Assembly (NCBI GenBank): GCA_963677925.2 | Contig: CAXXYH010000004.1 | Coordinates: 192,001-256,000, forward strand | Origin: Spirochaetia bacterium | Lineage (GTDB): Bacteria; Spirochaetota; Spirochaetia; UBA9216 | Length of the DNA stretch: 64,000 nt | Reading direction: 5' to 3' | Shown here: piece by piece, positions 5,035-28,873 of the stretch | Layout: each line of letters starts with the position of its first letter | How positions within the stretch are numbered: the stretch's first letter is position 1 | Position numbers and translations under genes: made by a program | The notes under the pieces: model-generated | Seen by the model: only the letters and a program-made list of their open reading frames with translations | Databases searched by the model: none | What the model was told of the DNA's origin: nothing

Positions 5035-5675
5035 AACTCTTCCAGCGGCTTATCCCTGAACAGAATATACTGAAGAAGATACATATACGGATCAAGAACC
5101 AGACCGAATTGGATAAAATATTCTGCGGTTTTCATTGTCCAGTTTTCAGTATAGCTGATTTTTAAAACGCCATGCAGATCTGCAGTAGAAAGTTCTTCAC
5201 CATACCAGAATCTCTCTTTACAGTTACTTAAAATTAGACTGAAGACATTATAATCAGGAATGAAAAACTCTCTTGGAAGACTGTTCAAGTTTCTGCCTCT
5301 TTTAATTTGTACTTCATCACCAATCGAGTATGAGATATTCACCGGATATGACACAATACATCCCCAGCTTCCGTTGAACTCAACAGAAGTTATTTCCAGT
5401 TCAGGATCAATTTCGCCTATCTTGACCATTTTAAAAACATTCTCAATATTATCAAAATGTGTGAATCCATATTCAATATAGGAATACTCATGATATAAAT
5501 CGTCAGCCTGATCGGGATATTGTTCGCAGAGATCCCTTAACCTGAGGTATGAAATAAACCAGTTTCTTTCTAAAAATAAGGACCGTTTTAGTTCTATCTC
5601 ATATTCCTCAAGTGCCTGTGCATATAAGTTAATAGACAAAATAATAAAAATTGATAATAACCAGTATTTTTTCAT
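5028..5675 (-). CDS. Exported hypothetical protein
   Basis: 215-aa ORF, signal peptide MKKYWLLSIFIILSINLYA. Confidence 0.7.
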   Translation of the reverse strand: MKKYWLLSIFIILSINLYAQALEEYEIELKRSLFLERNWFISYLRLRDLCEQYPDQADDLYHEYSYIEYGFTHFDNIENVFKMVKIGEIDPELEITSVEFNGSWGCIVSYPVNISYSIGDEVQIKRGRNLNSLPREFFIPDYNVFSLILSNCKERFWYGEELSTADLHGVLKISYTENWTMKTAEYFIQFGLVLDPYMYLLQYILFRDKPLEEFY

Positions 5676-14272: not shown

Positions 14273-15286
14273 TCACTTCAGGTTTAAATCACATACTGAT
14301 GCTCCGGGAATTAGTTCTCCGGGTACTGAAACAATCTCCGGACTGAAGCTGTCTGAGTTCTCAATATTCCGAATCAGCTGATAAGCCATCTGCTTCCCGA
14401 GCATTTCACCATTCTGCCTGTAGGTGGTCAGCGGCGGATGAAGAAGCCTTGAAAGAAGAATGCCGTCGTAACCGGCAATCGAAATATCCTTACCTATCTC
14501 AAGCTGCATTTCCTGAATAACCTTGATTCCTCCAAGAATAGCAAAGTCGTCCGGATACAAAATACATGTCGGCGGTTCAGCCATGGCAAGAAGCGCCCTT
14601 GTGGCTTCTTCACTCTGGCCCGGTTCGTGATACATCCCTTCCAGAAGATAATCAGAAGGAACAGTGATTCCGTTTTCACCGCAGACCGCCAGAAAAGACT
14701 CAAGGCGCTGACTGGTTACGTCAGTGTCCTCACCGTAGATAAAGGCAATCCTTCTGTGCCCAAGACCCGCCGCATATTCGGTAAGCTTTCTCATCCCGAC
14801 GGTATTGTCACTCACAACAGCAGTATGACCATCTACAACATGGTCAAGGGTTGTAACCGGGATACCGCTTGTAAGCAGCTGGATGATATCCGGCTTTGAA
14901 TAATCCACTACAACCATCGCAATACCGTCGCAGCCGCGGTATCTTGTATGCTTGAAATAATTGTCCTGGCCGCCCAGATTGTTGCTGATAAAGGTTATGT
15001 CATAACCCCTTGATTCCGCCTCAACCTTGAGACTGTCGAATATAGTAGCAAAGTATCCATGCTGGAGCCCGCTCTTTGTCTTATCCTCAAAAATTACGCC
15101 GATATTGTATGTCCTGCTTGTTTTGAGCGCACGTGCGGCAGAATTGGGCTGATACCCAAGCTCTTCGGCCGCAGCCCTAACCATCTTCGAGGTCTGCTCT
15201 CCTATTTCCCTGCTGCCGTTAAGCACCTTGCTTACAGTGGACAGCGAAACATTGCATTTTTCAGCTACATCCTTCAACTTAGCCAT
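14273..15286 (-). CDS. LacI-family transcriptional regulator
   Basis: KLKDVAEKCNVSLSTVSKVLN HTH, YQPNSAARAL hinge, PPLTT. Confidence 0.95.
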   Translation of the reverse strand: MAKLKDVAEKCNVSLSTVSKVLNGSREIGEQTSKMVRAAAEELGYQPNSAARALKTSRTYNIGVIFEDKTKSGLQHGYFATIFDSLKVEAESRGYDITFISNNLGGQDNYFKHTRYRGCDGIAMVVVDYSKPDIIQLLTSGIPVTTLDHVVDGHTAVVSDNTVGMRKLTEYAAGLGHRRIAFIYGEDTDVTSQRLESFLAVCGENGITVPSDYLLEGMYHEPGQSEEATRALLAMAEPPTCILYPDDFAILGGIKVIQEMQLEIGKDISIAGYDGILLSRLLHPPLTTYRQNGEMLGKQMAYQLIRNIENSDSFSPEIVSVPGELIPGASVCDLNLK

Positions 15287-15295
15287 TTATGCTCC

Positions 15296-15331
15296 TTTCT
15301 GATTTACTACAACGTTGTAGTAAATCAGAAA
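15296..15331. promoter_or_regulatory. Perfect 36-bp palindrome, probable LacI-type operator
   Basis: TTTCTGATTTACTACAAC|GTTGTAGTAAATCAGAAA with central CpG, next to the LacI ribosome-binding site. Confidence 0.7.
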
Positions 15332-15358
15332 AATAAAACCAATCCAAGCCCCGCATAC

Positions 15359-17761
15359 TCATAAAAGAACAGCCTCCACTTCAGCGCTTCCACTGATCTC
15401 GCTAAGCAGTTCTTCTGTTATAACATTCCCCGGACATAATCGGCCGTTTATCCTGAACTCGCGGACACTCCCGCAGCAGGATTCAGGATTTAAAATTTTT
15501 ATACTGATATCAATACCGCGGAATTTACGCTTCACCGTGAACCTCTCCCAGGATGCCGGTATACAGGGGTCTATTTTCAGTCCTTCAAATACCGGCCTTA
15601 TTCCGAGTATATATTCAGTTGCAGCCCGGTATGCCCAGGCGGCAGACCCTGTGAGCCAGGAATTCCTGCCGAGGCCGAACCCCGGATGCTCATCGCTTAG
15701 TATATTCTGAGCGTAACAGTAGGGTTCACATTCATAGGTATCAATAATTTTATTTTTGGAAGCCGGATTGATAGCCGAATAGTACTCAAAAGCTCTCTCT
15801 CCGTTTCCAAGCATAGTTTCGGCTATCATCACCCATGGATTTGCGTGAAGAAATATTCCGGCATTCTCCTTTGCTCCCGGCGGATAGGTTGTAACACCGC
15901 CCTTCTCCGGATCGTAACCTTCATACCCAGGACTCATCAGTTTGATTCCCGCTTCAGTCGCAAGCCGCCGGTTTACAGAATCAAGAGCCCTGACAGCCCT
16001 GTCCCTCGGGGCAAAACCGCTTAATACAGCCCAGCTCTGTGCATTAGCAAAGATTGAAGCATACCTGTCTTCAGGTGCACCGAGAGCCTTGCCCCTGTGA
16101 TCAAAATAGCGTACATACCAGTCGCCGACCCAGGCTTCGGCATTAAAGATATCTTTCATTTTTACATAATCTGACTGAAGATTTTCAGCCAAAGCTGTAT
16201 CCAGGCTGCAGTATTCCAGAAGCTGAATCATTTCGCTTAAAGCAAAGCCGTAAAGACATGCTATAAAGGAAGATTCTGCTCCGGCAGGCAGATTCACAGT
16301 ATCATTCCAGTCTGCAAAACCCAGAAGAGGAAGTCCGTGCGCTCCGGTGTTCTCTCCGGTAAATTTCAATGCCCGCAGCAAATGCTCAAGCACCGTGGCG
16401 GATTCATCTGAATCATAAAATCTGATTTCTTTATCAAGGAAGGCGGTATCACCGGTTTCTTTTATAAGCGAACATACAGCATATACAGCCCATAGGTGAT
16501 CATCGCCGTAATACTGCGGACGGTCTGGCATTTCTTCAGTTTCCCCCGGATGAGCCTCGCCCGATAGAGGATTATACTGATGCATAGCCGAACCGTTGCT
16601 TTTCTGGGTTTTAAGGATTTCCAGAAGGTAGTCAGCGGCCTCGGCCGGTTTCTGCGATATAATTCCGCATACATCCTGACAGGCATCCCGGAAACCGATT
16701 CCCCGCGCCCCGTAACCGGTCTGATAAATGGAAAGATATCTCGCCCAGTTCTTGGTGATATAGCACTGCCTGGGATTATGAATATTCACCATGCTGTTCA
16801 TATCATCAGCAGGAGTGTCTGCATTGAAATAAGAAAGATGCTCATCCCAGAAGGATTTAATATTGCTGAAGGCTGAATCAACCTCATCTTCAGAGCTGAA
16901 CCTTTCAACAGCTGACACCGCACCGGCTTCCGAATCCGCCTGCCCGAGCATAGTAAAGAAGCGTTCAGTTTTTCCCGGAGCTATCTCAAGAGGAATCATC
17001 AAGGCAGCTATATTATCACCGCGTTTCGCCTCGGTTTCCGACAGTTCAGCTGCTTCCATGGAGACGGGAGATTTCCACGAGCCGTATTCATTTGAGCCAA
17101 GAAAAATCCTCCGATCCGTTTCGAAGGATGAAGCCGCCCGGCTTGAACTGAAAAAATTAAGCATTGTATCGCGGTTCATATAGGCTGACTGCAGCAGAAC
17201 GGTGCGTCCTGAACTGCTTTTTACCGCACGGCTCTGCATGGTCTGGGGAACCCAGTCCGCGTTTGTAAGCTGCTTGAGCGCATCAAAGTGAGAATATTCT
17301 GCAGCCGGAATGAAATCCAGAGTCAGAGACTTTCCGGACTTATTATGAATTCTTACATCTCTTATTTCAAGTTTTTCACCAACCGGTACAAAGATACAAA
17401 TCTCCGATTCAAACTCACCGAAATCAGTCCTTATAATCAGATACTGTGTTCCGATACGGCATTCATAACTAATAATCCCTTCAGGAGAGGGCAGATAAAA
17501 CGGGCTCAGAAGCCTGTAGCCGGAAGCATCCTTAATCCGGATATATGCAGTAGTTCCGCGCATCTCTCCTGCCGGCAGGAATGAAAGGTAGCGTGTTATC
17601 CGGTTCAGAGCCGGGTCACCGCAGCAGAGCAGAGCTCCTCCTGTATGGTCGACAAAACCGCCGAAGGCAATTGTGCCGATATAGTTTATCCATTTAACAG
17701 GTGTGAGGGGATTGGTAATTACGTATTCCTTTGAATCATCATCAAAGTAGCCGTATTTCAC
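15359..17761 (-). CDS. GH94 glycoside phosphorylase (cellodextrin-phosphorylase/CepB-like)
   Basis: TPVKWINY, GIGFRD, GFADWND (catalytic Asp), KENAGIFLH, SWLTG. Confidence 0.85.
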   Translation of the reverse strand: MKYGYFDDDSKEYVITNPLTPVKWINYIGTIAFGGFVDHTGGALLCCGDPALNRITRYLSFLPAGEMRGTTAYIRIKDASGYRLLSPFYLPSPEGIISYECRIGTQYLIIRTDFGEFESEICIFVPVGEKLEIRDVRIHNKSGKSLTLDFIPAAEYSHFDALKQLTNADWVPQTMQSRAVKSSSGRTVLLQSAYMNRDTMLNFFSSSRAASSFETDRRIFLGSNEYGSWKSPVSMEAAELSETEAKRGDNIAALMIPLEIAPGKTERFFTMLGQADSEAGAVSAVERFSSEDEVDSAFSNIKSFWDEHLSYFNADTPADDMNSMVNIHNPRQCYITKNWARYLSIYQTGYGARGIGFRDACQDVCGIISQKPAEAADYLLEILKTQKSNGSAMHQYNPLSGEAHPGETEEMPDRPQYYGDDHLWAVYAVCSLIKETGDTAFLDKEIRFYDSDESATVLEHLLRALKFTGENTGAHGLPLLGFADWNDTVNLPAGAESSFIACLYGFALSEMIQLLEYCSLDTALAENLQSDYVKMKDIFNAEAWVGDWYVRYFDHRGKALGAPEDRYASIFANAQSWAVLSGFAPRDRAVRALDSVNRRLATEAGIKLMSPGYEGYDPEKGGVTTYPPGAKENAGIFLHANPWVMIAETMLGNGERAFEYYSAINPASKNKIIDTYECEPYCYAQNILSDEHPGFGLGRNSWLTGSAAWAYRAATEYILGIRPVFEGLKIDPCIPASWERFTVKRKFRGIDISIKILNPESCCGSVREFRINGRLCPGNVITEELLSEISGSAEVEAVLL

Positions 17762-20187
17762 AAAAGCACCTCTACTTCGTGTTTAGAATTATCAGAAAAA
17801 TAAGGAACGAATTTACCTTCAGCAGGCTTTCCGTCAACCTTCACAGCTGGGCCTTCACCCGTAGACGCCCGTTTAACTTCAATGTGGTAAAGGCTGCCTC
17901 TGCAGGTTCTTTCCACTGTAAATCCGGTCCAGTCATCAGGGATCACCGGATCGATTACCAGGTGATCAAAATCAGGCCTGATACCCAGTACATACTGTGT
18001 AAAAGCAAAGAAGCTCCAGGATGCCGTTCCGGTAAGCCATGAGTTCTTGGCTTCACCCTGAATAAAACCGTCGCGGCCGGATATCATCTGCGAATATACG
18101 TAGGGCTCAGTCTTATGCCTCTCCATAAGCGCATCATCATAGCCGGGGCAGATTGTCCGGTGATATTCCATAGCCTGAGCTCCGCGGCCCGCCATAGTCT
18201 CGGCAATTATTACCCAGGGATTATTGTGGCAGAAGATTGAACCGTTTTCCTTGTAGCCTTCCGGATAACTCGATATTTCTCCCAGCTCAATATGGTAGCC
18301 GGTGTAGGGCGGCGAAAGGATCTGGATGCCGTAGGGTGAGTACAGATGGTTTTTAACTGAATCAAGCGCCTTAAGCGGCAGCCCCTCATCCTTTCCAATC
18401 TCAGCCATTCCGCACATTCCCTGCGGTTCAATATAAATACTGCCTTCCGGGCATTCACTGCTGCCTACCCTGCTTCCGTTGTGATCATATGCCCTGACAA
18501 ACCACTCGCCGTCCCAGCCCTCGGCTTTTACAGCAGCTTCCATCTCAAGAATGGATTTATCCATTTCCTCTGCTTCCTTATCAAGCCCGAGTTTGCTGCA
18601 GAGGGCTGAAAAAGCACGGCCGGAGAATATAAACAGGCCTGCTATGAAAACAGATTCGGCTTTTCCACCTTCGGCATGTCCGCAGGTCTGAAAAGATTCG
18701 TCAGGATTATCCGAAAAAGCGTTGAGGTTCAGACAGTCGTTCCAGTCGCCCCGGCCGATAAGCGGAAGCCCGTGCGGACCTAGGTTTGAAAGCGTGAACC
18801 TGAATGAGCTTCTTATATGATCGAGCAGACTCCCGGTTTCTCCGTCGCGGTCCGCCCATTTGACCTGTTCATCAAGAATGGAATAATCCCCGGTTTCCCT
18901 TATGTATGTAGCTACCCCCATCGGCAGCCATAGAGGATCATCATTGAAATCTCCGCCGATATCACTGTTGCCGGTCTTGGTCAAAGGCTGATACTGATGG
19001 TAGGAACTTCCGTCTGAAAACTGAAGGGACGCACCGTCCAGTATTCTGGTTCTGACCCTCTGCGGTACAAGATGGTTGCAGGAAAGAGTATCCTGGAACG
19101 TATCCCTGAAACCTATACCGCGGCTTATCCCCGACTCAAAAAGAGAGGCGCTTCGGGCAAGGTTGAATGTAACCATGCACTGGTACTGGTTCCAGGTGTT
19201 TATAATTCGGTCAATCCTGTTGTCCGGGGTTGAAATCTGAAATGCTGAAAGATAATCGGCCCAGTATTCTGCAAGATCTGTCAGACCTGCAGCAATCTTC
19301 TCAGCCGAATCATACTTACTAATCATTTCCAGTGCGGTATCTTTTCGAAGCTTTCCCTCATCATCCCATTTCTGATCCCCTGGATTTTCAGCATAGCCGA
19401 GAACAAAGACAGCAGTTCTGCTTTCTCCAGGAGCAAGAGTCATTTTAAGATGGTGTGAGGCCTGCGGATGCCATCCGTGACAGACTGAATTTCCCGCTTT
19501 ACCTGCTTCTACCGCCTGCGGCATAGCCAGCCCGCGGTTTCGGCCCAGAAATGAGTCCCGATCGGTATCAAAGCCAGTGTAATCATCTGATACACAGCTG
19601 AAAAATGAATAATGGTTTCTTCTTTCCCGGTATTCGGTGCGATGATAAATAACCTGATTTTCAACTTCCACTTCTCCGGTGCTGAAGTTGCGCTGAAAGT
19701 TGGTCATATCATCAAGAGCATTCCAGAGGCAGAACTCCACAAAAGAAAAGACATCTGCAGTCTTTTGAGAACTGCTCTTATTACTCACTTTCAGGCGGAT
19801 TACTTCACCCTTATATCCGCGGGGAATGAAATGCAGCTGTGAAACTTCAAGCCCGTTTTTAGCTCCGGTGATTTCGGTATAGCCCATTCCATGCCTGCAT
19901 GAATAACTGTCAAGTTCTGCACATACCGGCTTGAATGAAGGACTCCAGACATCCTTTCCATCATTTAGATAGAAGTAACGGCCGTTGCTGTCCACCGGAA
20001 CATCATTGTAGCGGTACCTTGTAATACGTCGAAGCTTGGGATCCCGGTAGAAGGCATAACCTCCGGCTGTGTTGCTTATAATGGAAAAGAACTCATCGGT
20101 TCCAAGGTAGTTTATCCATGGATATGGTGTATCAGGTGTATTGATGCGGAATTCCCGTGCTTTTTCATCAAACTGTCCGAAATTCAC
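17758..20187 (-). CDS. cbpA: GH94 cellobiose phosphorylase
   Basis: TPYPWINYLG...RITRYRYN, RGIGFRD, GRGDWNDCLNL, GYKENGSIFCHNNPW, KNSWLTG. Confidence 0.85.
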   Translation of the reverse strand: MNFGQFDEKAREFRINTPDTPYPWINYLGTDEFFSIISNTAGGYAFYRDPKLRRITRYRYNDVPVDSNGRYFYLNDGKDVWSPSFKPVCAELDSYSCRHGMGYTEITGAKNGLEVSQLHFIPRGYKGEVIRLKVSNKSSSQKTADVFSFVEFCLWNALDDMTNFQRNFSTGEVEVENQVIYHRTEYRERRNHYSFFSCVSDDYTGFDTDRDSFLGRNRGLAMPQAVEAGKAGNSVCHGWHPQASHHLKMTLAPGESRTAVFVLGYAENPGDQKWDDEGKLRKDTALEMISKYDSAEKIAAGLTDLAEYWADYLSAFQISTPDNRIDRIINTWNQYQCMVTFNLARSASLFESGISRGIGFRDTFQDTLSCNHLVPQRVRTRILDGASLQFSDGSSYHQYQPLTKTGNSDIGGDFNDDPLWLPMGVATYIRETGDYSILDEQVKWADRDGETGSLLDHIRSSFRFTLSNLGPHGLPLIGRGDWNDCLNLNAFSDNPDESFQTCGHAEGGKAESVFIAGLFIFSGRAFSALCSKLGLDKEAEEMDKSILEMEAAVKAEGWDGEWFVRAYDHNGSRVGSSECPEGSIYIEPQGMCGMAEIGKDEGLPLKALDSVKNHLYSPYGIQILSPPYTGYHIELGEISSYPEGYKENGSIFCHNNPWVIIAETMAGRGAQAMEYHRTICPGYDDALMERHKTEPYVYSQMISGRDGFIQGEAKNSWLTGTASWSFFAFTQYVLGIRPDFDHLVIDPVIPDDWTGFTVERTCRGSLYHIEVKRASTGEGPAVKVDGKPAEGKFVPYFSDNSKHEVEVLL

Positions 20188-21377
20188 TATTCTGCTTCTC
20201 CTCTGGCGTCAACGATAGACTCTATGCTGCTTATAATATTCTGCCTGGTGCTCTGATTCTGATCCGGCGCTATTGTCTGGGGCGGAATTGAAAAGAGGTG
20301 CTCCAGAATAAGTCCCGAAGCCCCATAGGCAACAGAAAACTCTTTTTTGGAAAACTCCGAAATGCTGCACTCCGGCTGTTCACTGTACATCCAGTTATCT
20401 TTTATGGCGGCTTCCATAACAGGAATAATCTCATCCTGAAAATCAGTCTCTGTTCCGCCAAAGAAAAGATGATCCATATTGAAGGTATTAACCAGAAGCG
20501 CAGCATTTTTCGAAAGCTCGCTTATAAACTTCAAAAAAACAGATTTATCGTTCATGATATTGACGGTCTCATCCTTTGTTAGTGAGAACTGGTTAAGACT
20601 TCCCGGAGCAGTGAATATACTTTTGAACTCACCGGCTGTGTGGTCCGACCCGCTGTAGACCTTCCGGTCTATCGCTATTCCAAGACCGACAGCAATACCG
20701 CCCTTTCCTGTATTCAGAATCTCATCCTTTCTGAACTCAATAAGAAGAACAAGGTAATTCCTCAGTTTTTCATCACGGTTAAGGGCCAGCTCTCCCCAGG
20801 CACAGCAGTTGGCATCATTCTCAATAAAAACAGGGATGCTGAAACTGTGCTTTTCAAATTCCTCATAAACATTGAAATCTGAAGTTATATCAAGCGGTAT
20901 TGATCGTCTGATTATTCCGTTTACAGAATCTATAATACCGGAAATACCTATTCCAACTGAAATAATCGGAGCTTCAATCTCTTCCTGAATTGAATTAGTA
21001 ATCTCAATAATCTTGGATGCAAGGTTTTCGCTAGTAAAAACCTCGTTCCTTATTTCAGAACGAACCAGTTCACCTTCAAGATTTGTCACAGCAAGCTTGT
21101 ATGATGAATAAGGCTGAATCTCAACACCCAGAATTACGCCGAAGTTCTTGTTAATTGCAAGATGAACCGGCTTACGTCCGCCGGTAGCCCCGGCCTTGCC
21201 TTCGGCTATAGTCTCAATGATTCCTGATTCGAGCAGTTTTGAAACAATCAGGGTAACAGTGGATTTATCTATTTCAAGGAGTCTTGAAAGTTCAATCCTG
21301 CTTATCCCCTTGTTCTGCCATACCGCACGGAGAATCTTAGGGATATTTAAAGAATTTGTGTCAGTAAAAAATGCCAA
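20187..21377 (-). CDS. ROK-family transcriptional repressor (XylR/NagC-like)
   Basis: ISRIELSR...STVTLIV winged helix, GGRKP, FIENDANC, AGEF. Confidence 0.9.
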   Translation of the reverse strand: MAFFTDTNSLNIPKILRAVWQNKGISRIELSRLLEIDKSTVTLIVSKLLESGIIETIAEGKAGATGGRKPVHLAINKNFGVILGVEIQPYSSYKLAVTNLEGELVRSEIRNEVFTSENLASKIIEITNSIQEEIEAPIISVGIGISGIIDSVNGIIRRSIPLDITSDFNVYEEFEKHSFSIPVFIENDANCCAWGELALNRDEKLRNYLVLLIEFRKDEILNTGKGGIAVGLGIAIDRKVYSGSDHTAGEFKSIFTAPGSLNQFSLTKDETVNIMNDKSVFLKFISELSKNAALLVNTFNMDHLFFGGTETDFQDEIIPVMEAAIKDNWMYSEQPECSISEFSKKEFSVAYGASGLILEHLFSIPPQTIAPDQNQSTRQNIISSIESIVDARGEAE

Positions 21378-21489: not shown

Positions 21490-21520
21490 TTGACCTTCCC
21501 ATTTTGGCAAGGTTTATAAT
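21490..21520 (+). promoter_or_regulatory. MerR-type promoter of the glycyl radical enzyme gene
   Basis: TTGACC-19 bp-TATAAT with dyad ACCTTCC-N7-GCAAGGT. Confidence 0.85.
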
Positions 21521-21549
21521 TTTTTTGTAACCCAAATGGAGGAAAATAT

Positions 21550-23940
21550 ATGATTACTGCAAGAGTCCAGAGAATGATGGACCGGCTGGAGGTAGAGAAA
21601 TATCCGATACTAGCCGAAAAGGCCAGACTTACAATTGAAGCATGGAACAGTCACGAAGGTCTTCCTTCCGTCCTGCAGCGTGCTTATGCTACCGCACACT
21701 ACCTTGATAACCGCACCATTTATATAGATGACGATGAGCTTATTGCCGGAAATGTATCCAGCAAACCGATGGGAATGGAAGCGGCAACATGGGGTCCCTT
21801 CTGGGAGGATAAGGATCTTGAAACAATGGACAGCGTTTTTGAGATCAGTGATGAGGATCGTAAAACACTTAGGGGCCTTGATTCTTTCTGGGAAGGCAAG
21901 GGCCGTCAGATTTATGAATGGCAGGGACGTTACTATGACGATCACCACTTATGGCCTTTTATAAGATCAGGAATCCTCTGCCCGCCCTGGACAGATAAAA
22001 CCAAGGGACGCGGTTCAGGAGGCGCAGGCTTCGGATGGGGTCTGGGAATCGGACTCTCATTCTTTGTTCCTGACTATGAAAAAATCGTAAAAGAAGGAAT
22101 AAGCAAAACCCTGCATGATGCTGAGGAAGAACTTTTAACTCTCAGATACCATGACCAGGATTCAATCGACAAAGCCGACTACCTTAAGGCGGTAATTATT
22201 GCGCTCAGTTCCATGGTAAGAATGTACCACCGCTACGGAGACGCCTGTCAGAAAAAGGCAGATGAAACTGCTGATGAAACACGAAAGAAGGAACTTCTGC
22301 GAATGGCCGACACCTGTCACTGGATAGCCGATAATCCTTCCCGTAATTTCCGTGATGCCCTTCAGAATTTCTATTTTTACTGGATGATGATTGCCCACGG
22401 AGTTACTCCGGGCGGACGTTTTGACCAGTATATGTACCCATACTATAAAAAAGACATTGAATCCGGCGAAATTACCGAAGATGAGGTAATTGAACTTCTG
22501 GGAATGCTTCGAATAAAGATAATGCAGTTCAACTTTATAAGCGGCGGAGCACTTCAGCGCGATAAATGGGCCGGAATGGCCAGATGGCACAACTTTGTGA
22601 TCGGCGGCGTGGACAAAAACGGAAACGACGCAACAAATGACCTGTCCTACCACGTTCTTCAGGCGGCATTCGACGTAAGAGTTCCGCAGTACACAATTAC
22701 TATCAGGGTAAACAAAAATACCCCCGACGCACTTATGAAAAAGGGAGCTGAACTGGTAAGAACCGGAATAGGAATGCCGGCTTTTATATCCGACGACAGC
22801 TATATTGCCGGACTTGTTGACCAGGGAGTACCTCTTGAAGAGGCTCGCGGCTATGCCCTTGCAGGCTGTCTGGACCTCAATATCCCCGGAAAATCCAGAA
22901 TAAATGCCCTGGGAATGTTCATAGTTCCGAAGGTTCTGGATATCACAATGCACAATGGTTTACTTACCTCTACCGGAGAACAGATCGGTCCGAAAACCGG
23001 CGAAATGAAGGACTTTAAAACTTTTGATGAGTTCTACACAGCCTTCAAAACCCAGCTTTTTCACTTTATGGGTATGTACAATGAGGAACATAATATCCTT
23101 ATCCATGTAACTCATCATACTCAGCCCGATGTAGTGCATTCCGCCTTCACCTACGAGGGTATTACATCAGGAAAAGACATGAATCAGCGGAAGATGTTCT
23201 ATGAGAATGCTTCCATGTTCAACCCTGTGGGAATGATCAACGTTGTCAATTCAATGGCTGCTGTTAAGAAACTTGTCTTTGATGAAAAGAAATTTTCAAT
23301 GGAAGAACTCTATTCTGCTATTGAGGCTGACTGGCTAGGATATGAAAATATTCAGGATCTCTGCCTGAATGCTCCAAAATACGGAAACAATGACTCCTTT
23401 GTAGACGAAATTGCCAAAGATCTCTTCGGGTACTGGATATCATCAACTTCAAAATTCAGATCCGTTTACGGAGAACAGCCCAGACCGACCGGAATATCAA
23501 TTACCGCGCACGCACCGGGCGGTTCATATACCTGCGCAACTCCCGACGGCCGGAAATCGGGCGAAACCCTCTGTGACGGAGTAGTATCTCCGGCCCAGGG
23601 AAGTGATGTCCATGGTCCTACTGCCTCACTGCAGAGCGCAATGCAGATCGATCAGACTCCTTTCAATGCCATGCTGCTGAACATGAAGATTGATCCAAGC
23701 GCGCTTAAAAGTGATTCCGACCTTGCGAAGCTTTCCGCTCTTATCAAAACCTACATGTTCAACGGCGGAAAACATATTCAGTTCAATGTTGTAGATAATA
23801 AAACACTTAGAACTGCACAGATAACACCTGAGAAATACAGGGATCTGATTGTAAGGGTAGCAGGATACAGCACATATTTCACAATTCTGACCCCTGCCGT
23901 TCAGGAAGAAATCATTAAGCGGACAGAGAATAAACTATAG
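21550..23940 (+). CDS. Glycyl radical enzyme (PFL-like family) of unknown specificity
   Basis: 796 aa; GRFDQY, AGCLD (Cys440), PKYGNND, ATPDGR, HIQFNV, RVAGYS (Gly772); GGAGG Shine-Dalgarno. Confidence 0.95.
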   Translation: MITARVQRMMDRLEVEKYPILAEKARLTIEAWNSHEGLPSVLQRAYATAHYLDNRTIYIDDDELIAGNVSSKPMGMEAATWGPFWEDKDLETMDSVFEISDEDRKTLRGLDSFWEGKGRQIYEWQGRYYDDHHLWPFIRSGILCPPWTDKTKGRGSGGAGFGWGLGIGLSFFVPDYEKIVKEGISKTLHDAEEELLTLRYHDQDSIDKADYLKAVIIALSSMVRMYHRYGDACQKKADETADETRKKELLRMADTCHWIADNPSRNFRDALQNFYFYWMMIAHGVTPGGRFDQYMYPYYKKDIESGEITEDEVIELLGMLRIKIMQFNFISGGALQRDKWAGMARWHNFVIGGVDKNGNDATNDLSYHVLQAAFDVRVPQYTITIRVNKNTPDALMKKGAELVRTGIGMPAFISDDSYIAGLVDQGVPLEEARGYALAGCLDLNIPGKSRINALGMFIVPKVLDITMHNGLLTSTGEQIGPKTGEMKDFKTFDEFYTAFKTQLFHFMGMYNEEHNILIHVTHHTQPDVVHSAFTYEGITSGKDMNQRKMFYENASMFNPVGMINVVNSMAAVKKLVFDEKKFSMEELYSAIEADWLGYENIQDLCLNAPKYGNNDSFVDEIAKDLFGYWISSTSKFRSVYGEQPRPTGISITAHAPGGSYTCATPDGRKSGETLCDGVVSPAQGSDVHGPTASLQSAMQIDQTPFNAMLLNMKIDPSALKSDSDLAKLSALIKTYMFNGGKHIQFNVVDNKTLRTAQITPEKYRDLIVRVAGYSTYFTILTPAVQEEIIKRTENKL

Positions 23941-23994
23941 AGATTCGATAATCCTTCTAAATATCGATTATTTAAAAAAGTTACAACCAGCCAC

Positions 23995-24029
23995 GGGGTC
24001 ATCCAATAAGTATTGGGTGACCTCCTTTT
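23995..24029 (+). terminator. Intrinsic terminator after the GRE gene
   Basis: GGGGTCATCCAATA-AG-TATTGGGTGACCTC then CTTTT. Confidence 0.7.
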
Positions 24030-24077
24030 ATAAAAACTTTGAAAAACAGTGATTTTAATCATTCGAAATAATTTTTC

Positions 24078-24108
24078 TTGACCTTCCCAATATGGGAAGG
24101 CTTAAAAT
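24078..24108 (+). promoter_or_regulatory. MerR-type promoter of tctBAC
   Basis: TTGACC-19 bp-TAAAAT with dyad CCTTCCCA-ATA-TGGGAAGG. Confidence 0.85.
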
Positions 24109-24204
24109 TTCGAGAAATTCTCAAATGAATTGGTTGATTATCAGTTAGCGGCACTGACATGCATTACGCAGCTAAAAACTGAGAAAATTAAAAGGAGAAG
24201 GGTT

Positions 24205-24678
24205 TTGACCTCGAAATTTATCCACAAGGACAGAGTCCTAGGACTCATAATGCTGGCTTTAACAGGCTTCTTCGGATTTCACACCATGCGCCTTCCTGAA
24301 TCCGTTGTCCAGGGAGATCCTGGCCCCAAGGTATTCCCCTATATAGGATGTTTCCTCATGGGCGTGATCGGCATTTCCTATCTGTTTAAGAAACATCCGG
24401 ATACTGCAAAAGAAATAGACAGGGAAGAACTGAAACGTCTTGTGCTTCTTTTTTCTCTTTACGTTCTGTTCTTTGTAGTCCTTTGGCTTTTCGGCTACCT
24501 GGTTGCAATTCCTGTAGCAACATTCCTTATTTCAATGCTGTTCTCAAGGGAAGCAAATATTAAGACCAGAAATGTTGTTATCTATACCGTACTGGTAACG
24601 CTAGGAATCTACATCGCATACGTCGTAGCTCTCGGCTCTTCTCTTCCGAAGGGCATATTCTGGAACCTTTTCAGGTAA
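24205..24678 (+). CDS. tctB: Tripartite tricarboxylate transporter small membrane subunit
   Basis: About 4 TM helices, GDPGPKVFP motif; TTG 24205 with AGGAG 7 nt upstream. Confidence 0.85.
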   Translation: MTSKFIHKDRVLGLIMLALTGFFGFHTMRLPESVVQGDPGPKVFPYIGCFLMGVIGISYLFKKHPDTAKEIDREELKRLVLLFSLYVLFFVVLWLFGYLVAIPVATFLISMLFSREANIKTRNVVIYTVLVTLGIYIAYVVALGSSLPKGIFWNLFR

Positions 24679-24696
24679 GACAGGAAGGTAGATAAA

Positions 24697-26187
24697 ATGA
24701 TACTTGAAACATTACAGACAATCGCCACACCCGCTGGCCTGATTTATATTTTCGGAGGAGCCGTTCTTGGAATGCTTCTCGGAGCAATCCCGGGACTCAG
24801 CGGAGGAACAATCACGATCCTGCTGCTGCCGATATCCTACAAGATGAATCCGGCTCTTGCACTGGGTCTGTTTACTTCAATTTACATAGGAAGTACATCC
24901 GGAGGCTGTATCGGTTCAATTCTGCTTGGAATTCCCGGCACGAACTCATCGATTGTAACTACATTTGACGGTTACCCAATGACTAAAAAGGGCGAGCCGG
25001 TACGTGCACTCAGTGCCGCGGTCAGCTCAAACTTCATAGCGATGATCCCCTCTCTTGTAATCGCTATAATCGCAGCACCCCTGCTTGCAAAGCTTGCTGT
25101 AAAACTTGGCCCCTGGGAATACTTTGCACTTTGTCTTTGCGCAATCGCAATGGTTGTCGGGCTTTCAAAAGAGAATGCAACGAAGGGCTTACTTGCTGTA
25201 GGGCTTGCAATTATTGCCGCCTCAGTGGGAATGGCTCCAATCTCATCTACCCAGCGTTTCACATTCGGCAACCTCTACCTTTATGACGGCTTCAGCATTG
25301 TAAACATAATGATGGGTATGTTCGCTGCAAAGATTATACTGCAGGAGTTTGCCAGCGGTAAAAAAGCCAAGGAAGCATCAAACATAAAGGTCAGCGGATT
25401 CAAACTTCCGGTAAAAGATCTTCTTAATAATGTAGGCAACATCATCAGGTCCTTTTTCACCGGCCTGATAATCGGATTCCTCCCGGGACTCGGCGGAAAA
25501 ACCTCAACATTCCTGGCTTATTCAACTGAAAGAAACCTGTCCAAAAATAAAGAAAACTGGGGAAAGGGTGAGGTTGCAGGCGTCATTGCACCGGAAGTTG
25601 CAAATAATGCAGGAATAGGAGGAGAGCTTATTCCGCTTATCGCCCTGGGTATACCGGGAAGCACACCAATGACTCTCTTTCTGGCAGCGCTTACAATTCA
25701 TGGAATAAACCCGGGTCCGCTCCTGATAAGGAATAACCCTGAAATTGTTTACATGATCTACATCGCAGCTATCATAGCTGCAGTGCTCATCCTCATTGTT
25801 GAAATAGTAGGCATGCCCATTTTCCCGAGAATGCTGAAAGCACCATATCACTATCTGTATCCTTTAATTATCATAATTTCACTGCTTGGCGCATATCTCT
25901 CCGGTAACAGCTTATTCGGACTGTTCGTTACTCTTGTTGCCTGCCTGCTCGGACTCGCGATGGATTATTTCAGCATTCCGATAGTTCCATTCATCATGAC
26001 CTATATCCTGAGTACGCTTCTTGAAAGAAATCTAAGGATGGCTTTGAACTATTCCGATACAGGCTTCCTATCATTTTTTACCCGTCCGGTTTCCGCAATT
26101 CTACTTCTAATAGGAGCAGGGTTACTGGTTTGGAACCTGGTAGGTCATTTAATCAAACCTGCGAAACAGAAAGCCGAAGTTCGATAA
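24697..26187 (+). CDS. tctA: Tripartite tricarboxylate transporter large permease
   Basis: GAIPGL, GIPGT, DGYPM, PEVANNA, LGIPG motifs. Confidence 0.95.
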   Translation: MILETLQTIATPAGLIYIFGGAVLGMLLGAIPGLSGGTITILLLPISYKMNPALALGLFTSIYIGSTSGGCIGSILLGIPGTNSSIVTTFDGYPMTKKGEPVRALSAAVSSNFIAMIPSLVIAIIAAPLLAKLAVKLGPWEYFALCLCAIAMVVGLSKENATKGLLAVGLAIIAASVGMAPISSTQRFTFGNLYLYDGFSIVNIMMGMFAAKIILQEFASGKKAKEASNIKVSGFKLPVKDLLNNVGNIIRSFFTGLIIGFLPGLGGKTSTFLAYSTERNLSKNKENWGKGEVAGVIAPEVANNAGIGGELIPLIALGIPGSTPMTLFLAALTIHGINPGPLLIRNNPEIVYMIYIAAIIAAVLILIVEIVGMPIFPRMLKAPYHYLYPLIIIISLLGAYLSGNSLFGLFVTLVACLLGLAMDYFSIPIVPFIMTYILSTLLERNLRMALNYSDTGFLSFFTRPVSAILLLIGAGLLVWNLVGHLIKPAKQKAEVR

Positions 26188-26249
26188 AAATATTATGCAA
26201 TTAATGCTGCAATTTGCAGCATTTGAAAAATATTAAATAGGAGAAAAGA

Positions 26250-27263
26250 ATGAAAAAGAAGAGGAAAATTTTATTGCTGGCAGTTGCTGTTCTGGTTTTA
26301 TTCAGTCTGCATACTCTTTCTGCAAACGGACAGCAGGAAGGTGCTGCGGGCGGAGCTGAGGCCTGGCCGGCAAAAGATGTAACAGTTTACATCCCGAACC
26401 CGCCGGGAGCACCAATCGATTTATCCACAAGAATTATGCTTGAATACCTGACTGAAAAAACTGGTGGAACATTTATTCCTGTAAATGAAAACACCGGTGT
26501 CGGCACCCTGGCATTAAAAAAACTTTCAGGTGCAAAACCGGACGGATATACACTCATGTTTACCGGCTCAGGTGCAAATATCCAGTATCATACAGGACAG
26601 AATGATATTAACCCAATGAATCCTGACCAGGTAACAATTATTTCTTCAACTCCGGGTTTAAAGGTTGATTTTGACTCTGTACTTCTCACAACTCCCGATC
26701 ATCCTTATAAGACCTGGGAAGAATTTGTTGATTACGTAAAAGCACATCCCGGTGATGTAAATTACGGAACAAGTACAGGAAGTACTGTTGAGGTTAAGGC
26801 CCGAATGATCCTGAAACAGTTCGACCTTGAAGACAAGGTTAAACTTGTATATTCCGGTAATTCAGAAATTCCTATCGGGATGCTGGGCGGTTCTATTGAT
26901 GCCGCAGTTCTGTCAGGCTTGAGTGCCATGCAGTACCTGCAGGACGGTTCCTTTATTGCCCTTATGCATACAATAGATGAGTACAACGGCAGCAACCCGC
27001 TTTTTGTAGATCTTCCTACTTATACAGATCTCGGATGCCCTGAACTGTATTCCGCATTTCCGATGTACCTGGTAGGACCCGGAAATATGGATCCTGAACT
27101 TGTTAACAAGATTAATTCAATGCTGACCGATGCAGCTTCAATAGATAAGTATGTAGAACGATGGGATAAAATGCACAGTATTTATATACCAAAATCTCCG
27201 GAAGAAATCCGTGAAATGGTTGCCCGCATGGATAAAAACATCGAAAAAGTTTACAAAAAATAA
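26250..27263 (+). CDS. tctC: Tripartite tricarboxylate transporter substrate-binding protein (Bug/TctC)
   Basis: Signal peptide, WPAKDVTVYIPNPPGAPIDLSTR, AKPDGYTL. Confidence 0.9.
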   Translation: MKKKRKILLLAVAVLVLFSLHTLSANGQQEGAAGGAEAWPAKDVTVYIPNPPGAPIDLSTRIMLEYLTEKTGGTFIPVNENTGVGTLALKKLSGAKPDGYTLMFTGSGANIQYHTGQNDINPMNPDQVTIISSTPGLKVDFDSVLLTTPDHPYKTWEEFVDYVKAHPGDVNYGTSTGSTVEVKARMILKQFDLEDKVKLVYSGNSEIPIGMLGGSIDAAVLSGLSAMQYLQDGSFIALMHTIDEYNGSNPLFVDLPTYTDLGCPELYSAFPMYLVGPGNMDPELVNKINSMLTDAASIDKYVERWDKMHSIYIPKSPEEIREMVARMDKNIEKVYKK

Positions 27264-27272
27264 AACATCTTC

Positions 27273-27299
27273 AGGCGGGAGTAATTTAAACTCCCGCCT
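27273..27299 (+). terminator. Strong hairpin after tctC (no U-tract; terminator or mRNA stabiliser)
   Basis: AGGCGGGAGT / ACTCCCGCCT. Confidence 0.55.
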
Positions 27300-27314
27300 C
27301 GCCTAGAGAAACCT

Positions 27315-28145
27315 ATGAACAAAAACTGGGGCTCCGATAATTTACTGATTGGCCAGATGGCCAGAATGCATAATATCTCACCAAAAATGCTTCGATATTG
27401 GGACAGAATCGATGTGCTTAAACCCGCAGTAACCAATGAAATAAACGGCTACAGGTATTATACAACCAGGCAGTTCCACACACTTAATTTTATAATCTAT
27501 ATGCGATCAATGGGCCTTTCATACAAGGAAATTAAAAATTACCTTAAGAACGATCATCACAACAGCCTGATTGAACTTCTTGATTCACAAATTGATATCA
27601 GCGAAAAGCGAATACAGGAACTTCAAACTACTCAGACAATGCTCAAAGGACTGAAGTCAGAGATTGAGAATGCGCTGGATGTAAAGCAGGATGAAGCCGT
27701 CAGACTTGAACGGAGGAAGGCCAGGCAGATCCTCCGGATGAAGGGCGATATCAAAACCAGGGTTGAGTTTGAGACTCTGGTATACAGTCTACGGAACAAA
27801 ATTGAGAACAAACCTCATATCCTGATGCCGAAGGTAGGATTGTTCCTTGACCGTGAAGAATTTAAAAAAGGGAATTTTGATGTATTCAGCGGAATCTATA
27901 TTCTTAAAGAAAACTACAACACATCCCCAGGATTTATTTCAAGCCTGCCGGCCGGAGATTATGCCTCAATCACATTCTGGGGGAGGACTGAAGAATCTGA
28001 AAACCAGTTTGCCAAACTGGCTGATTTTCTGGACCGGAACAATCTTCAAATGAAGGATGATGTTATACGCTGTGTTGTTGCACCCGGCATGCATGAGGAC
28101 GAGCGTGGTCATCTGGCCCAGATTGCTGTCCGGGTTTCAGACTGA
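27315..28145 (+). CDS. MerR-family regulator with C-terminal GyrI-like effector domain (BmrR-type)
   Basis: IGQMARMHNISPKMLRYWD...NGYRYY HTH, coiled coil, LPAGDYAS. Confidence 0.9.
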   Translation: MNKNWGSDNLLIGQMARMHNISPKMLRYWDRIDVLKPAVTNEINGYRYYTTRQFHTLNFIIYMRSMGLSYKEIKNYLKNDHHNSLIELLDSQIDISEKRIQELQTTQTMLKGLKSEIENALDVKQDEAVRLERRKARQILRMKGDIKTRVEFETLVYSLRNKIENKPHILMPKVGLFLDREEFKKGNFDVFSGIYILKENYNTSPGFISSLPAGDYASITFWGRTEESENQFAKLADFLDRNNLQMKDDVIRCVVAPGMHEDERGHLAQIAVRVSD

Positions 28146-28147
28146 AA

Positions 28148-28873
28148 CTACTCCCAGGGCGTTTTAGTTTTCCTTCTGACAACTATCTCATCTATAACAG
28201 CATTGCCGTTCATTCCCAGCAGAAAGCCTACTGAGGCCGCAATATCTTCAGGCTGTATCATTTCCGATGTATCAATGTCCGGCCTGACAGTTCTTACCAT
28301 ATCAGTATCAACCCCGCCCGGCAGCACAGCATGAACACGGATATTAGTTTTGGATAAATCCCGCGCTGTTGATTTTGTCAGGCCGTAGAGTGCATGCTTT
28401 GATGCAGAATATAAAACCTGATTTTCATAACCCTTCTGTGAAACAATTGAACAGATATTTATTATAAAACCGGGGTCTGCCTTCTTCAGAAAAGGTATTG
28501 CTTCCTGAATCAGAAAAAAGGGGATCTTTGCATTTATGTTCATCACACGATCCCATTCCTCAGAAGAATATCCGCCGACAGGCTTTGCCATTGTAATTCC
28601 AGCATTATTCACAAGAAGATCCAGTCTGCCGAACTGTTCTACAGAAGCTCTTACTATATCAGCACAGTCAGAAACTTCAGAAAGCTCAGCCTGTCTTATG
28701 ACAACATTAACTTTATCTCCGGCAGGAAGTGATTCAAAAACCTTAGCTTTGGTTTCTTCAAGTCTGGCAGCATTTCTTCCTGTCAGAAAGAGGCTGTATC
28801 CATGGGAAGCAGCCTCTACTGCTATAGCCCTTCCTATACCGCCGGATGCCCCTGTAACAAGAGCAGCCTTCAT
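28148..28873 (-). CDS. Short-chain dehydrogenase/reductase
   Basis: TGASGGIG, NNAG, YSASK. Confidence 0.95.
   Translation of the reverse strand: MKAALVTGASGGIGRAIAVEAASHGYSLFLTGRNAARLEETKAKVFESLPAGDKVNVVIRQAELSEVSDCADIVRASVEQFGRLDLLVNNAGITMAKPVGGYSSEEWDRVMNINAKIPFFLIQEAIPFLKKADPGFIINICSIVSQKGYENQVLYSASKHALYGLTKSTARDLSKTNIRVHAVLPGGVDTDMVRTVRPDIDTSEMIQPEDIAASVGFLLGMNGNAVIDEIVVRRKTKTPWE

Follow-up and report, generated by a model that had tools for sequence, protein, structure and literature searches.

A glycyl radical enzyme of a GCxD clade and a TctBAC importer behind MerR-type promoters with a common operator in a Spirochaetia genome

What does a glycyl radical enzyme (GRE) do when it lies beside a carboxylate importer and matches no characterised relative at its catalytic cysteine? 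The question is raised by a 64,000-nucleotide stretch of a Spirochaetia bacterium genome (contig CAXXYH010000004.1, positions 192,001 to 256,000; hereafter the window), in which a GRE gene is followed by tctB, tctA and tctC, which encode a tripartite tricarboxylate transporter (TTT), and by a gene for a BmrR-type MerR regulator. A sequence-only reading of the window had proposed a ligand-inducible unit that imports an organic acid and processes it by radical chemistry. From the analysis that follows, we conclude that a ligand-inducible regulon probably has one of its arms in the window and serves to break down, anaerobically, an organic polyanion that the cell imports, most likely a di- or tricarboxylate. 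The GRE family is known; the clade to which this enzyme belongs, its active-site signature and the regulon are undescribed as far as our searches reach.

The window GRE is intact and belongs to no characterised GRE family. Cys440 lies in GCLD (from residue 439) and Gly772 in RVAGYS (from residue 769), and these residues stand exactly where the sequence-only reading had placed them; the two further segments that it singled out are GRGSGGAGFGWGLG at 153 and KWAGMARWHN at 339. The best sequence match in the Protein Data Bank is glycerol dehydratase (E 2.9e-134), and identity to any solved GRE is at most 33%. An AlphaFold2 model of the enzyme, with a mean predicted local distance difference test score (pLDDT) of 83.5 and a predicted template modelling score of 0.87, superposes on solved GREs with template modelling (TM) scores of 0.82–0.91. 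None of the NCBIfam equivalog cut-offs was reached: the models for HpsG, HpfG, HypD, CutC, the indoleacetate and hydroxyphenylacetate decarboxylases and PFL gave 121–513 bits against cut-offs of 994–1150, the best scores being those of HpsG (513 against 1000), HypD (487 against 1100), indoleacetate decarboxylase (482 against 1100) and CutC (468 against 1050). The PFL2-3 subfamily model was also missed (522 against 678 bits), and the PFL/TdcE class is set apart by the single cysteine of GCLD, rather than two adjacent ones, and by a score of 121 bits on TIGR01255 against a cut-off of 994. Relatives in a large protein collection, 57–86% identical, carry only generic names ('formate C-acetyltransferase', 'hypothetical protein'), and the ESM Atlas returned generic GRE clusters only.

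The difference is plainest at the cysteine loop. In the CXE motif, the glutamate two residues after the catalytic cysteine is hydrogen-bonded to the substrate hydroxyl (PMC13450708), and sections 5.6 and 5.7 of that 2026 review of the superfamily describe CXE as kept in all six C–O eliminases, CutC, the C–S lyases and three isomerases. The window GRE reads C-L-D instead. The loops of the five solved GRE chains that we aligned read GCVE or GCVL, and GCxD in none, and the terms 'CXD', 'aspartate' and 'dicarboxyl' occur 0 times in the text of the review. Literature searches found no work tying GREs to PrpD, with subscription-only papers and supplements outside their coverage, so that a characterised member could exist in print; searches on GREs with TTT systems or aconitate, judged mostly by titles, gave nothing on the GCxD clade or otherwise relevant, and among the matches listed for GREs from 2024 on there was no polycarboxylate GRE. 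As far as these searches and comparisons reach, the proposal that a CxD loop is foreign to characterised GREs is borne out, and the enzyme has no high identity to any solved one.

The aspartate is not confined to this gene. We collected 59 loci from species-representative genomes by the peptide patterns KWAGMARW and RVAGYS[TA]Y[FY], which bias the sample to one half of the clade (B, below), and added seven loci of this genome; together they held 82 GRE open reading frames (ORFs), of which nine shorter than 700 amino acids (aa) were dropped and 73 kept. GC(L/V/M/I)D is read in 68 of the 73, so that a loop which had been taken as a trait of the window GRE is indeed present there but is the signature of a whole clade. 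In a FastTree phylogeny, midpoint-rooted and with long outgroup branches, the GCxD sequences form one clade of 69 rows (Shimodaira–Hasegawa-like support 99) that takes in L036, an internal sequence that reads GCLE; outside it fall the four remaining GREs, of which three have CxE and one has CxY. An alignment of 34 relatives shows no variation in GCLD, the glycine-rich segment or KWAGxARW. The clade is monophyletic in this tree and is marked by GCxD, a glycine-rich insertion and K(W/N)xGxA(R/K)W, with two halves that read KWAGMARW (B, which includes the window GRE) and KNAGMAKW (A). Within it, L036 (7968–10397) reads GCLE and its nearest relatives, L038 and L040, read GCLD, a natural exchange of aspartate and glutamate.

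Record titles give clade members nine phylum labels (Bacillota, Spirochaetota, Thermodesulfobacteriota, Myxococcota, Chloroflexota, Acidobacteriota, Planctomycetota, Pseudomonadota and Actinomycetota), and many members come from rumen or gut metagenome-assembled genomes (MAGs). The orthogroup of the window GRE has 11 rows with support of 100, and the phylum spread of the orthologs suggests that the module has been transferred between phyla. The contigs closest to the window unit are titled Spirochaetales or Spirochaetia, and most orthologs are in Bacillota. Paralogy is common: among the 47 external loci with a full-length GCxD GRE (flanks of at most 8 kb, many contigs being cut short), 13 carry two or more GCxD GREs, often one from each half. 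One goat-omasum Bacillota MAG (L037, 2975–12668) has four GCxD GRE genes in tandem on one contig.

What sets the clade apart extends well beyond the cysteine loop. At 14 positions, Asp442, Arg337 and Trp346 among them, the clade conserves to at least 95% a residue that none of the four outgroup rows has. The catalytic cysteine and the radical glycine are present in all 69 clade rows, as are Arg337, Trp346 and a lysine or arginine at position 345; Asp442 is kept in 68 (glutamate in one), Lys339 in 65 and Arg450 in 60, and Arg154 is specific to the B half (36 arginines versus 25 serines). The strand that corresponds to the one bearing His164 in glycerol dehydratase is interrupted by the glycine-rich motif, which inserts about 12 residues. 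From the alignment, we read this as an active site unlike any solved one, apparently built to hold anionic groups.

We then turn to how the GRE and its neighbours are controlled. The GRE gene and tctBAC are each preceded by a promoter with TTGACC, a 19-nucleotide (nt) spacer and a −10 element, and in both spacers lies a palindrome of the form CCTTCCCA-N3-TGG(G/C)AAGG (Table 1). Scanned with at most one mismatch, the window contains two matches to this palindrome, both at these promoters, and 100 shuffled sequences contain none, in agreement with the earlier notice of matching promoters. A generic sigma-70 scan, which accepts spacers of 16–18 nt and so misses these promoters, gave counts equal to those in shuffles. 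Because the promoters are of MerR type, the GRE/tct unit is very probably ligand-induced. A strong terminator-like hairpin between the GRE gene and the tct promoter divides the two into separate transcription units that share one operator type.

TctA, TctB and TctC all score above the Pfam cut-offs and their genes are contiguous, so the TTT gene set is complete. TctC has a signal-like N-terminal segment without a lipobox cysteine and, among solved structures, matches Bug-family and terephthalate binders distantly; we also tried to read its ligand from solved relatives (glutamate, terephthalate, adipate and others) and rejected this, the relatives being too remote (best E 1e-18). The regulator matches MerR_1 above cut-off (53.6 bits) and a GyrI-like domain just below it (22.9 bits against 26), and its best solved relative is BmrR, aligned over residues 11–255, nearly the full length (E about 1e-10). 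Pfam and the BmrR alignment thus agree with the gene order and regulator type first proposed, and we presume that this MerR protein is the ligand sensor that acts at the palindrome.

The operator is not limited to the window. With at most one mismatch it occurs four times in the 5.04-Mb genome, against about 0.03–0.07 chance matches expected from base composition by our own estimate, and all four sites have the TTGACC–19 nt–−10 geometry and lie upstream of genes. The window unit appears, from these shared sites, to be one part of a larger regulon that includes a distant activase, a second GCxD GRE and MatC. The MerR paralog encoded next to the activase operon is 34% identical overall to the window regulator, with the likeness concentrated in the DNA-binding half, a pattern that would fit one operator read with different ligands. 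The regulon is conserved in two related genomes. In one of the same genus (G001), the whole 6.8-kb block is present at 86% nucleotide identity, with sites of exact geometry before the GRE gene, tctB and the activase operon. In one of another genus of the same family (G010), sites precede an activase–GRE_A pair and an 84%-identical ortholog on one contig (the same record as locus L016), and on a second contig a site precedes tctBAC, with a divergent MerR fragment alongside. A similar site lies directly 5' of a PrpD-like gene and a GCxD GRE gene in a Desulfobacula MAG. A MAG chromosome titled Spirochaetia (L065, 7989–10388) encodes a GRE almost identical to the paralog C3:710, with branch lengths of 0.02 and 0.008. 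The operator site there matches the one at C3:709245 exactly; this MAG is probably a very close relative and was not counted as independent.

Table 1 Features of the GRE unit, operator sites and GCxD paralogs. Plain numbers are positions in the window; other positions are in the same genome.
Feature	Position	Strand	Evidence or content
MerR-type promoter of GRE gene	21490..21520	+	−35 TTGACC 21490–21495, 19-nt spacer, −10 TATAAT 21515–21520
Operator site before window GRE gene	21494–21512		Palindrome CCTTCCCA-TTT-TGGCAAGG, within spacer
GRE gene, 796 aa, GCxD clade B half	21550..23940	+	ORF list, Pfam (PFL-like PF02901 E 1.8e-153; Gly_radical PF01228 E 1.1e-29), motif reading, structure model; ribosome-binding site GGAGG, 21538–21542
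Intrinsic-terminator-like hairpin	23995..24034	+	3' of GRE gene; 13 pairs, T-rich tail
MerR-type promoter of tctBAC	24078..24108	+	−35 TTGACC 24078–24083, 19-nt spacer, −10 TAAAAT 24103–24108
Operator site before tctB	24082–24100		Perfect palindrome CCTTCCCA-ATA-TGGGAAGG, within spacer
tctB, small membrane subunit of TTT	24130..24678	+	Pfam TctB E 1.2e-14
tctA, large membrane subunit	24697..26187	+	Pfam TctA E 6.2e-130
tctC, extracytoplasmic substrate-binding protein	26250..27263	+	Pfam TctC E 2.3e-22
Perfect 10-bp inverted repeat between tctC and merR	27273..27299	+	No T-run behind
BmrR-type MerR regulator, 276 aa	27315..28145	+	N-terminal MerR helix-turn-helix (HTH), C-terminal GyrI-like effector domain
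Operator site before activase–GRE–MatC operon	C3:709245		Directly after MerR paralog
Operator site before PucR-type regulator (536 aa) and OppBCDF-like genes	G000:C4:934222 (L087, about 5219–5249)		
GCxD GRE	G000:C3:710		MerR, activase, GRE, MatC
GCxD GRE	G000:C3:1385		Two HGD-D genes, MatC, SBP5, GRE, MatC
GCxD GRE	G000:C4:1339		TRAP ... GRE ... Opp-type ABC
GCxD GRE	G000:C4:1359		PucR; TctBAC, PrpD-like, PGA_cap-like, GRE
GCxD GRE (window)	G000:C4:213		GRE, TctBAC, MerR

Which genes accompany GCxD GREs elsewhere? The genome encodes seven GREs, five of them GCxD enzymes that are 43–74% identical to one another and each have their own transporter genes. It has two activase genes (PFLE_PFLC) for the seven, one adjoining a GCxD GRE and the other a GCIE GRE. 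The window contains none, and the activase beside a GCxD GRE, encoded at G000:C3:709289–710227, sits on another contig behind the same MerR operator. The claim of a ligand-inducible unit therefore gains from the MerR-type promoters but is incomplete as first drawn: the window lacks an activase and the regulon spans contigs. Within 5.2 kb of a GCxD GRE lie two of the genome's four TctA genes, three of its four MatC-like genes and both of its MerR genes of this type, although stretches of that size centred on the five GREs amount, by our own arithmetic, to well below 2% of its sequence.

In the flanks of the 47 external loci, MatC occurs at 13 and Tct and TRAP genes at five each, so that one or another of these three carrier types adjoins the GRE at 22; Opp-type ABC (ATP-binding cassette) genes occur at six. 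Activase genes are equally frequent (22 loci), followed by PucR (16), PrpD-like (15), PGA_cap-like (eight) and HGD-D genes (eight) and by MerR genes of this type (five). Tct and MerR genes were never found together (0 of 47). The recurrence that the sequence-only reading had expected of a strict GRE–tct–merR triad is hence limited to the same-genus genome, with a split regulon in one other genus; what does recur is a GCxD GRE beside some carboxylate carrier. The partners vary even within the orthogroup of the window GRE, which has Tct genes in the window genome and nearby in L073, MatC with a PrpD-like gene in L021 and L022, MatC without one in L023, and Opp-type ABC genes with a PrpD-like gene in L017 and L018. 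Among the 27 most recurrent neighbour clusters there are no aldehyde-dehydrogenase or microcompartment genes. The link of GCxD GREs to carboxylate carriers is strong, and the theme common to these gene neighbourhoods is a GCxD GRE accompanied by a dedicated regulator and by import of an anionic solute.

Some neighbouring genes deserve separate mention. Between the PrpD-like gene and the GCxD GRE gene at G000:C4:1357965–1359125 (L091, 7965–9125) lies a PGA_cap-family gene that weakly matches, with 97 bits, the model of MslH, a lasso-peptide C-terminal tryptophan epimerase (cut-off 700); this points to a function like that of an epimerase and away from capsule synthesis. The genome's second PrpD-family gene closes an operon at G000:C4:1310754–1318394 (L089, 754–8394) with Opp-type ABC genes, an S15 hydrolase (X-Pro dipeptidyl-peptidase-like) and an esterase; it may serve to free an acid that is bound in an ester or amide conjugate. 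Just upstream of the operator site at C4:934222 are two type II dehydroquinase genes, a xylose-isomerase-like TIM-barrel gene and a GntR/FCD regulator. The dehydroquinase genes hint at a possible hydroxy-carboxylate (quinate/shikimate-like) metabolism; they belong to a separate GntR-headed unit, so this link is only a lead.

Within the window, a TTG at 24205, preceded by AAGGAG, is likely to be a better start candidate for tctB than the annotated position. The inverted repeat between tctC and merR is possibly a partial terminator or processing site. Divergent from the GRE promoter, on the minus strand at 14273–21377, lies a cluster of cellobiose/cellodextrin type (a LacI-family regulator, two GH94 phosphorylases of 800 and 809 aa and a ROK-family regulator with an HTH) that appears to have no relation to the GRE unit. 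On the opposite strand 3' of merR, an SDR gene and an AhpC-type gene also look unrelated; the convergent SDR gene (28148–28873) was considered as a member of the unit and excluded, having a relative in one external locus only.

The hedged proposal of organic-acid import and radical processing is supported by these data; the substrate and the reaction given here are what we infer. In the scheme that we favour, TctC would bind the acid outside the cell and TctAB would import it, as their family implies. The acid or a derivative would bind the GyrI-like domain of the BmrR-type regulator seated on the palindrome in the over-long 19-nt spacer. The promoter geometry is observed; by analogy with MerR and BmrR action, the regulator would realign the −35 and −10 elements. 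Four promoters would then be switched on, namely those of the GRE gene, of tctBAC (probably with merR), of the activase, second GCxD GRE and MatC, and of PucR with the Opp-type ABC genes. The single clade activase, presumably co-induced with the window GRE and serving several paralogs, would install the radical on Gly772, from where it would move to Cys440, and the thiyl would abstract a hydrogen atom from the substrate. Arg337, Lys339, Arg345 and Arg450, with the glycine-rich loop, may hold the carboxylates, and Asp442 may act as acid/base in place of the usual glutamate, a substitution supported by the natural exchange in L036. As for the reaction, our first guess would be an elimination or rearrangement of 1,2 type in which a C–O or C–N bond next to a carboxylate is broken, the nearest relatives being eliminases, with radical decarboxylation a close second. 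Also in favour of elimination or rearrangement, the PrpD-like and PGA_cap-like neighbours may supply a stereospecific enzyme, acting as epimerases or dehydratases.

Several observations weigh against this scheme. In glycerol dehydratase, His164 protonates the leaving hydroxyl (PMC13450708, section 5.6.1). By alignment alone, the corresponding position is histidine in three of the four outgroup rows, and in the clade it is leucine or phenylalanine (55 and 11 of 69 rows; Phe171 in the window GRE), and Asp447 of glycerol dehydratase aligns with Ala453. The AlphaFold2 model is least confident exactly at the basic-residue and glycine-rich motifs: pLDDT falls below 50 at 158–169, 283–285, 328–333, 338–345 and 652–658, which are the most conserved clade-specific motifs, so their placement in the pocket comes from alignment alone. 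The best solved match in the cysteine-loop region, 7e7l, is deposited as a decarboxylase, and the indoleacetate decarboxylase model gives nearly as many bits as the best of the eliminase models (482 against 513). The two MerR paralogs are only 34% identical, and either may be the one that acts at a given site. The Opp-type ABC systems beside some clade members mean that substrates need not be simple carboxylates.

Part of this evidence would suit a radical decarboxylase of Kolbe type whose substrate is an aliphatic or substituted di- or tricarboxylate, such as an acid of malonate or succinate type. A bound carboxylate would be oxidised by the thiyl together with Asp442, and after loss of CO2 the carbon radical would be quenched by Cys440-SH. 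Besides the 7e7l match and the indoleacetate decarboxylase score, the carriers beside clade members are carboxylate carriers, the MatC family included, and the clade has gained basic residues and lost the dehydratase histidine to a hydrophobic one. We nevertheless consider it unlikely. The radicals of known GRE decarboxylases are, as far as is known, benzylic or otherwise stabilised. The full-length best sequence and fold matches are eliminases, and the frequent PrpD-like and PGA_cap-like neighbours suggest a stereochemical funnelling more typical of hydroxyproline-type eliminases. Known GRE decarboxylases, moreover, all act on arylacetates according to the abstract and section 7 of the superfamily review (PMC13450708).

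A second alternative takes the enzyme for a 1,2-eliminase of the ordinary kind, for instance a dehydratase of diols or hydroxy acids, in which aspartate has conservatively replaced glutamate and the chemistry is not new. The GCLE sequence of L036 among GCLD relatives and the nearest solved structures, glycerol and propanediol dehydratases, speak for it. However, the loss of the His164 equivalent and the change of Asp447 to Ala453 make classic diol-dehydratase chemistry unlikely, as far as aligned residues can tell. The glycine-rich insertion of roughly 12 residues falls in the same active-site strand, 14 positions are conserved to at least 95% in the clade and missing from the outgroup rows, the scores lie far under every equivalog cut-off, and the most recurrent neighbours lack the aldehyde-dehydrogenase and microcompartment genes. 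We regard this explanation as highly improbable. Even less credible is a C–C bond-forming or -cleaving enzyme of X-succinate-synthase logic, which would add its substrate to, or release, fumarate or another unsaturated dicarboxylate: dicarboxylate carriers adjoin clade members, the conserved basic residues offer possible anchors for two carboxylates and the tandem arrays resemble substrate-diversified X-succinate synthases, but those synthases rank low among solved relatives (26–28% identity), the 172- and 189-bp flanks of the window GRE gene are filled by promoter and terminator and leave no room for a small-subunit gene (at other loci, only ORFs of at least 80 aa were considered), and the hosts, by record titles, include rumen and gut fermenters rather than hydrocarbon degraders.

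Returning to the polyanion regulon, we offer one further-reaching idea, tentatively: that GCxD enzymes are a new functional class of GREs for aliphatic polycarboxylates or related polyanions, with a reaction outside the C–O, C–N and C–S eliminations, decarboxylations of arylacetates and additions to fumarate that are known. Sets of paralogs that share one activase, such as the five here and the four in tandem in the goat-omasum MAG, would have arisen as this class diversified, and in this genome the class would stand under two MerR sensors on one operator type; its reactions may include, for example, radical decarboxylation or C–C cleavage of tricarboxylates that come from plants or hosts. According to the 2026 review, whole clades of GREs await experimental validation, and hitherto unknown anaerobic pathways of gut and sediment microbes have come to light again and again through new GRE chemistries (PMC13450708). 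Here, a clade that carries nine phylum labels, includes many MAGs from rumen and gut, is present five times in one genome and has a remodelled active site is joined to a regulon that makes the question experimentally tractable, naming a likely activase, a binding protein (TctC), a sensor domain and four promoters. Identifying the substrate would probably assign a function to many generically annotated GRE genes.

How does the locus compare with known systems? Its best relatives are glycerol dehydratase and 1,2-propanediol dehydratase (1r8w and 5i2g; TM 0.89, 31–33% identity), with which the window GRE shares a ten-stranded barrel, the RVAGYS glycine loop, a G-C-x-acid cysteine loop and, presumably, a PFLE_PFLC-type activase. 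It differs from them in having aspartate rather than glutamate at Cys+2 and Ala453 for Asp447, and the clade differs in its leucine or phenylalanine for His164, its glycine-rich insertion, its extra conserved arginines and lysines and its neighbours, which are anion carriers instead of microcompartment or aldehyde-dehydrogenase genes. HypD, HpyG, HpzG and HplG of the hydroxyproline family (6vxc, 8id1, 8iof and 7vua) are close to the window GRE in score. These enzymes act on carboxylate-bearing substrates, have several paralogs for different stereoisomers and all keep CXE, as sections 5.6 and 5.7 of the review describe (PMC13450708), whereas the window GRE reaches 487 of the 1100 bits required by the HypD model and has different neighbours.

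A TTT importer feeding a GRE has a counterpart in Bilophila wadsworthia, in which SauXYZ supplies a sulfoacetate/isethionate pathway that ends in the GRE IslA (PMC10413351). C–S lyases anchor their anion by two arginines and one glutamine (PMC13450708, section 5.6.3). IslA keeps CXE, however, the window GRE is about 29% identical to it, and nothing in the window unit points to sulfonates. For the control, there is a precedent in the cut GRE cluster of Desulfovibrio alaskensis, in which Dde_3291 is a MerR-like choline-dependent activator (PMC4045070). The window GRE is not CutC (468 against 1050 bits), and no microcompartment genes were seen with it. The HTH of the window MerR protein matches the NCBIfam model of the Dde_3291 type over residues 9–117 only (57 against 450 bits), so its effector domain differs from that of Dde_3291. 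The DNA sites are alike: the Dde_3291 palindrome CnTTCCCCnnnnGGGGAAnG, as given in that paper, also lies between −35 and −10 elements, and it resembles the window operator, CCTTCCCA-N3-TGGGAAGG.

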